Shown here: one piece after another, positions 1,280 to 1,321 of the stretch
Position numbering within the stretch: position 1 is the stretch's first letter
How the letters are laid out: the number at the start of each line of letters is the position of its first letter
Assembly (NCBI RefSeq): GCF_003334815.1
Contig: NZ_QOWO01000088.1
Origin: Escherichia coli
GTDB lineage: Bacteria; Pseudomonadota; Gammaproteobacteria; Enterobacterales; Enterobacteriaceae
Length of the DNA: 2,230 bases
Direction: 5' to 3' (one strand)
Translations under genes and position numbers: made by a program
The notes under the pieces: model-generated
Told to the model about the DNA's origin: nothing
The model's database searches: none
What the model saw: only the letters and a program-made list of their open reading frames with translations

Positions 1280-1290
1280 TTTTGGATGAT

Positions 1291-1321
1291 GGCCGCCATG
1301 TGGCGGCCTGAATTATTTTTT
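1291..1321 (+). terminator. Putative intrinsic terminator after yjiA: stem GGCCGCC/GGCGGCC with ATGT loop (1291..1308), then a T6 tract (1316..1321)
   Basis: Perfect 7-bp GC-rich inverted repeat seen directly, 12 nt after the yjiA stop. The T-tract is separated from the stem by 7 nt (TGAATTA), which is suboptimal. It lies in the 33-bp gap between the convergent yjiA and brnA genes. Confidence 0.45.

Follow-up and report, generated by a model that had tools for sequence, protein, structure and literature searches.

The immigration control region of Escherichia coli has been well described as a defence island whose content varies (PMC12707154, PMC2481252), and yjiA has been named as its anchor gene (PMC12707154). 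At the yjiA edge of this island, yjiA may converge on brnA, the antitoxin gene of a brnTA toxin–antitoxin cassette, with a GC-rich hairpin between the two stop codons. We asked to which of the two genes this hairpin belongs and what it might do at the ends of their transcripts. The window, by which we mean the whole 2,230-nt stretch of DNA analysed here, represents the yjiA edge of the island, and its positions 78–2230 are identical to E. coli SCU-172.

A GC-rich hairpin between converging yjiA and brnA

The plus strand of the window encodes yjiX (109–312) and the conserved anchor gene yjiA (323–1279), a P-loop GTPase gene that ends with a TAA stop codon at 1277–1279. The minus strand encodes the 100-aa antitoxin BrnA (1313–1615), whose stop codon appears as TTA on the plus strand (1313–1315), and the toxin gene brnT (1602–1878), which overlaps brnA by 14 nt (1602–1615) and is a pseudogene here, annotated as 'frameshifted'. 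The first-pass annotation, made from the letters alone, had named the converging genes yjiA and brnA, and both names were right: the yjiA ORF matches NF008578 with 682 bits (cutoff 361), the brnA ORF matches PF14384 at 3e-17, and the RefSeq annotation concurs. Between the converging stop codons is a gap of 33 bp (1280–1312), with which the variable, brnA side of the island breakpoint begins.

The remainder of the window shows the mosaic context of the locus. Positions 2062–2230, up to the window end, are one end of an IS1 element; many IS1 copies from plasmids and chromosomes match the window from 2061/2062 onwards. NC101 and other strains instead have a restriction endonuclease gene after brnT at this position. 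At the other end, the match to the window starts at 78 in some genomes and only at 109, the start of yjiX, in others, indicating that the btsT–yjiX spacer is polymorphic. YjiX, which ends in ...GMRCC, reaches 61.9 bits against the NCBIfam 'KCU-star family selenoprotein' model, below the cutoff of 85, and appears to be a Cys-containing relative of that selenoprotein family.

The core hairpin (1291–1308) begins 11 nt past the yjiA stop codon and has the sequence GGCCGCC-ATGT-GGCGGCC, in which arms at 1291–1297 and 1302–1308 form seven G-C pairs around the loop at 1298–1301. Read in the brnA direction, it begins 4 nt after the brnA stop codon. When we re-read gap, stem, brnA stop, and T-run from the sequence, all coordinates in the first-pass annotation were correct; its description of the gap as almost entirely one hairpin was overstated, as the hairpin occupies 18 of the 33 bases.

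The hairpin is real and non-random. A free-energy calculation had been proposed as a check, and the fold calculated with ViennaRNA is strong: −17.6 kcal/mol (z −3.8) for 1280–1325 on the plus strand, −16.5 kcal/mol (z −4.8) for the same interval on the minus strand, and −15.0 kcal/mol (z −3.9) for the 18-mer by itself, with none of 200 shuffles folding as well in each case. The earlier view that the structure is common to converging yjiA and brnA is borne out in that it folds on both strands within the 33-bp gap. No other perfect stem of at least 7 bp (loop 3–8 nt) is present in the 2,230-nt window, and of 1000 dinucleotide shuffles of the window, 1.5% produced an all-G/C stem of such length at any position. 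A permissive Rfam 15 scan of the whole window gave no relevant match, SNORD60 reaching 17 bits against a threshold of 42.

On the plus strand, the hairpin could be extended to 1284–1318 by a lower stem in which GGAUGAU (1284–1290) pairs with AUUAUUU (1312–1318) and UGA (1309–1311) is bulged out. This lower stem contains three G·U pairs in addition to the 3-nt bulge and is worth 1.4 kcal/mol (the extended fold has −17.6 kcal/mol, and the core has −16.2 kcal/mol in this context); it is predicted to be weak. The same flank also contains the start of a putative 21-codon plus-strand ORF (1286–1351; MMAAMWRPELFFVLIAQHRFT), which crosses the stem and extends in antisense into brnA. It has AGGAAG 10–15 nt upstream, and we found no support for its expression.

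Terminator quality on the yjiA strand

A stable GC-rich stem–loop just past the stop codon is one hallmark of an intrinsic terminator, and the plus strand has it. The first-pass annotation held that the T-run at 1316–1321 would complete a terminator on this strand, and the claim stood only in part. The T6 run does supply the distal part of the only U-rich tail, which is on the yjiA strand, and, as had been noted, the run lies inside the 3′ end of brnA, where it is the reverse complement of AAA AAA (Lys99–Lys100), with the brnA stop codon (1313–1315) between it and the stem. The terminator is not clean, however. The core stem is followed by UGAAUUAUUUUUUG, in which T6 starts 7 nt past the stem, and the tail UGAAUUAU has U at four of eight positions, a proximal UGAA (GAA at positions 2–4), and a tail score of 2.84. 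The score is decay-weighted in the style of TransTermHP and d'Aubenton-Carafa (0.9 for U, 0.6 otherwise), and its values are for comparative use only; on this scale, the canonical brnA terminators of Pantoea and Xenorhabdus reach 4.7–5.0. Only if the weak lower stem (1.4 kcal/mol) forms does a better tail, UUUGUUCU with a score of 4.35, abut the helix. A consensus terminator scan found a single terminator-like site in the window, on the plus strand, which passes at the minimum of 5/8 T with a 2-nt offset; as 2.2 sites are expected in shuffles, the scan alone is not significant.

Because the tail starts with UGAA and T6 corresponds to the Lys-Lys codons of brnA, the plus-strand site seems to reach no more than sub-canonical quality as an intrinsic terminator. 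The T6 run itself is best read as a by-product of coding sequence and not as an adaptation to yjiA, since an A6 run is also found in Enterobacter brnA genes that have no adjoining yjiA.

We considered whether the hairpin could be yjiA's own canonical Rho-independent terminator, with release at about 1320–1325 and brnA merely overlapping the tail. Such a reading would account for a strong GC stem located 11 nt past the yjiA stop codon, for the sole U-rich tail being on the yjiA strand, and for the terminator-like call of the consensus scan, and with the extended lower stem the tail score becomes comparable to canonical examples. A rare stem variant, GGCTGCC, also keeps pairing only in the yjiA sense (see below). 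We nevertheless regard it as unlikely: the proximal tail is UGAA with its score of 2.84, the lower stem adds only 1.4 kcal/mol, and T6 is a coding feature common to Enterobacter brnA genes. The distribution of the hairpin, described below, speaks against it as well. We searched the literature for Term-seq data for Nissle 1917 and found none.

Possible read-through on the brnA strand

Past the stem, the minus strand reads AUCAUCCAAAAUUAC, with U at two of the first eight positions and a tail score of 2.1, in agreement with the first-pass annotation, which saw no U-tract on this strand. An RNA polymerase continuing past the hairpin would transcribe 1290 down to 1211, an untranslated stretch antisense to the yjiA 3′ end that is C-rich and G-poor (31 C and 8 G in 80 nt, or 39% C and 10% G). 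It is the most C-over-G-skewed stretch, at the 99.7th percentile of C minus G among the minus-strand 80-mers of the window. C-rich, G-poor composition is favoured by Rho. Judged from base composition only, 1211–1290 is a candidate Rho loading region that may act in Rho termination. Read-through of brnTA transcripts into antisense yjiA, as had been suggested, is plausible but probably short, because the first 80 nt are C-rich, G-poor, and thus resemble a Rho substrate. Transcriptional interference or stabilisation of mRNA 3′ ends, which the first-pass annotation also raised, may be among the effects.

Linkage of the hairpin to brnA

We then asked how the hairpin is distributed. The surrounding 60-mer (1272–1331) is present in 2112 of 5426 complete E. 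coli genomes (about 39%), exactly so in 1441, and in those 2112 genomes it occurs at a single place and always between yjiA and brnA. In genomes lacking brnA, homology to the window ends at 1266–1285, i.e. at the yjiA stop codon, beyond which K-12 has a REP element (in the yjiA–mrr gap), O157:H7 an 11-bp stem with a long loop that is unrelated to the window hairpin, and strain K71-77 another, unrelated stem. The hairpins of other island variants mostly have no U-tract. Because brnA-less genomes diverge right at the yjiA stop codon, the hairpin is placed on the variable brnA side, and the comparison indicates that it belongs to the side of the brnTA cassette and not to yjiA.

The K-12 REP at the equivalent position, together with the REP-like sequences in Citrobacter spacers (see below), raises the question of whether the hairpin is itself a REP-type or other dispersed repeat inserted between the genes. 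We rejected this identity, which is hardly credible given that the sequence has one place per genome in 2112/2112 genomes, that the motif GGCCGCC-N3-6-GGCGGCC is confined to the yjiA–brnA junction in 863 kb of compared loci, and that the sequence is unlike the K-12 REP and has no Rfam match.

We also scanned relatives of BrnA, using one genome per species. In three Enterobacter species, brnA ends in ...AAC AAA AAA TAA (AAAAAATAA) and is followed after 4 nt by an 8-bp GC-rich hairpin; here, the converging neighbour is an RhtC/LysE-like exporter gene, not yjiA. The AAAAAA-TAA/TAG ending is likewise found in Enterobacter brnA genes without yjiA beside them. Two further Enterobacteriaceae have a GGCCAC...GTGGCC hairpin 2–3 nt past the brnA stop codon with a co-directional gene downstream, and in the more distantly related Pantoea and Xenorhabdus brnA is followed by textbook hairpin-plus-U-tract terminators. 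In several Citrobacter species brnA converges on yjiA, with brnA ending in AAGAAATAG and different spacers, many of them REP-like. From these comparisons, a hairpin directly after brnA appears to recur with the cassette and not to depend on yjiA. No single structural register accommodated the post-brnA hairpins of E. coli, Enterobacter, and the other Enterobacteriaceae, so that these hairpins need not share a common descent.

The arrangement of brnA converging on yjiA was seen in Citrobacter species, a Pluralibacter MAG, and one Enterobacter species (loci L008–L015, L018, and L026, at about 2800–2950). The brnA–yjiA spacers in these loci are longer and different, and many contain REP-like palindromes (GCCGGATGGCGGCTACGCCTTATCCGGC). 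The presence of this adjacency in other genera indicates that it is older than E. coli or recurs outside it.

These distributions bear on the possibility of a terminator belonging to yjiA. The hairpin travels with brnA, whereas the other island variants break at the yjiA stop codon and carry other hairpins, and equivalent hairpins follow brnA without yjiA. The notion of the hairpin as yjiA's own element thus did not hold up: it is on the brnA side of the breakpoint, and its equivalents follow brnA where yjiA is absent.

The layout of A6-TAA, 4 nt, and hairpin beside yjiA in E. coli and beside an exporter gene in three Enterobacter species would also fit an inward-facing insulator, in which the Lys-Lys-stop codons (AAAAAATAA) and the hairpin 4 nt further on form a portable terminator against incoming convergent transcription that shields the antitoxin gene. 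In both settings the tail facing the incoming gene is U-rich, with scores of 2.84 (E. coli) and 3.81 (Enterobacter). However, two other relatives have a co-directional gene downstream, the Enterobacter stem folds less well on the strand of the incoming transcript (−12.8 kcal/mol, z −1.06), Citrobacter brnA ends in AAGAAATAG and is followed by other spacers, and the KK-stop may be kept for protein reasons alone. We therefore consider a shielding function distinctly unlikely. Should it nevertheless apply, mobile toxin–antitoxin cassettes would have gained a small design principle, with coding sequence doubling as the U-tract of an opposite-strand terminator.

Variation at the junction

To describe variation at the junction, we sampled 54 junction sequences from genomes and gut metagenomes. 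The stem was invariant in 50 of the 54, the rest representing one wobble-compatible variant and one 1-nt deletion, the latter from one contig at 0.87x coverage. Among the same sequences, the 5′ flank TTTT varied to TTAT (Nissle 1917), TTTG, or GTTG, the loop ATGT varied to ACGT or ACTT, and G at position 1322 was replaced by A, a change that is synonymous in brnA. This pattern fits constraint on the stem, although the counts are low and there is too little diversity within the species for selection on structure to be proven. Some strains have a 7-bp tandem duplication of GGATGAT directly 5′ of the hairpin (window 1284–1290), which lengthens the gap to 40 bp (1551–1590 in locus L088; also in L141, L092, and L115).

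The stem variant GGCTGCC, found in 1 of 5426 genomes and in two metagenome contigs, forms a G·U pair in yjiA-sense RNA and a C·A mismatch in brnA-sense RNA. The Enterobacter stem also contains a G·U pair, and there the brnA-sense fold has −16.7 kcal/mol versus −12.8 kcal/mol (z −1.06) for the other strand. Strand-specific wobble evidence is therefore mixed, with the E. coli variant favouring the yjiA sense and Enterobacter the brnA sense.

We also considered a chance or neutral palindrome without a role, or a site acting at the DNA level, for example a palindrome bound by a protein or a boundary at which the island recombines. The hairpin is positioned exactly at the island boundary, and its conservation within the species could reflect a mere lack of divergence time. 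Against this, the 1.5% expectation applies window-wide, yet the stem falls in the 33-bp gap, and many relatives have a GC hairpin immediately after brnA although the sequences differ. The ATGT centre is non-palindromic and variable, as would be expected of an RNA loop more than of an operator with dyad symmetry, and the exchange of island content has been attributed to flanking homology (PMC12707154, PMC2481252). Overall, we judge an accidental or DNA-level origin to be very unlikely.

The brnTA module and decay of brnT

The locus has the architecture of a BrnTA type II toxin–antitoxin module, with BrnT (PF04365) followed by an overlapping BrnA (PF14384); the intact BrnT of NC101 matches PF04365 at 1e-24. 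The toxin reading frame of the window is not intact. Alignment with intact alleles revealed an 11-bp deletion between 1725 and 1726, at which intact alleles have ATCGGCCTGGT, and this deletion shifts the brnT frame; brnA is intact.

In other lineages (loci L139 and L140, 1059–1160; L006, 4205–5380), brnT has decayed independently of the deletion in the window. MDR_56 and HCM-28C-2 have only a partial brnT and keep brnA and the hairpin. SK1402 lacks brnT and has a Fic-family gene after brnA, and here too brnA and the hairpin are kept. These cases suggest repeated loss of the toxin with retention of an orphan antitoxin.

Just upstream of the brnT start codon (1878) are two similar 10-mers, at 1895–1904 and 1909–1918. 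They read TGTATATACA, which is a perfect palindrome within TTGTATATACAA, and TGTATCTACA, and they look like candidate operator repeats for autoregulation by BrnA.

The cassette was also found on RCS63_p (NZ_LT985269.1; 2540–6632), a 22-kb mobilizable E. coli plasmid with a captured chromosomal segment comprising the yjiA 3′ part, the hairpin, brnTA, mdtM, and yjiN and adjoining sul2, aph(3′′)-Ib, and aph(6)-Id. We rejected RCS63_p as a yjiA-free plasmid context of brnTA, since the yjiA 3′ end is still on the captured chromosomal piece.

A proposed shared transcript-end hairpin at the 3′ end of the brnTA cassette

The observation of a non-random, conserved structure that is linked to brnA leads us to infer, with a probability of roughly 0.55, that the hairpin is a 3′-end element of the brnTA cassette and that the convergent genes yjiA and brnA share it as a transcript-end hairpin. 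Its role would be shared because the brnTA cassette sits directly against yjiA.

In yjiA-sense RNA, the hairpin and the interrupted U-rich tail UGAAUUAUUUUUU would act as a weak-to-moderate (leaky) intrinsic terminator and/or pause site, with the Lys-Lys codons of brnA supplying the T6 part of the tail. In brnA-sense RNA, where the hairpin is located 4 nt past the stop codon and no U-tract follows, it would most likely be a pause site and a barrier to 3′-exonucleases. Polymerases that pass the hairpin on the brnA strand would produce C-rich, G-poor antisense-yjiA RNA, and Rho might then end the transcript. Head-on encounters between converging polymerases paused at the hairpin could possibly add termination in both directions.

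On this reading, the element is a transcript-end hairpin of the ordinary type found between convergent genes; it introduces no new kind of feature and matters little beyond annotation. The yjiA 3′ end would be set by whichever cassette fills the neighbouring island: K-12 has a REP element there, about 39% of E. coli have the hairpin, and different stems are found in other cases. As a consequence of this cassette-defined end, the behaviour of the yjiA 3′-UTR may differ between strains. A coding Lys-Lys run that supplies a U-rich tail for the opposite strand is a tidy example in itself.

Comparison with known systems

The hairpin resembles a canonical Rho-independent terminator in its GC-rich 7-bp stem, its 4-nt loop, its position 11 nt past the stop codon, and the U-rich plus strand downstream. 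It differs in that the U-run is displaced by 7 nt, the proximal sequence is UGAA, the tail is inside the opposing coding sequence, and the brnA strand has no U-tract at all.

Transcripts ended by Rho-dependent termination are trimmed back at their 3′ ends to a stem, giving stabilising 3′-terminal hairpins. The brnA strand is similar in that its strong stem has no U-tract and leads into untranslated RNA rich in C and poor in G, a base composition from which Rho dependence may be predicted.

Hairpins between convergent E. coli genes have been described as pause and collision sites at which bidirectional termination occurs without the appearance of an intrinsic terminator (bioRxiv 10.1101/2022.10.23.513370). 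As in these bidirectional terminators identified by SEnd-seq (the Ju/Wang/Liu collision model), a single hairpin element lies in a short gap between converging genes, here 33 bp, folds on both strands, and lacks the full look of an intrinsic terminator in at least one direction. The class was defined in K-12, where the window allele is absent.

Palindromic REPs between convergent genes have been proposed to be terminators and/or blocks to decay for both neighbouring genes (bioRxiv 10.64898/2026.03.23.713779). The REP in the K-12 yjiA–mrr gap has the same position relative to yjiA as the window hairpin and is likewise a palindromic hairpin without a U-tract, whereas the window hairpin is single-copy, unrelated in sequence, and built on a shorter, perfect stem.
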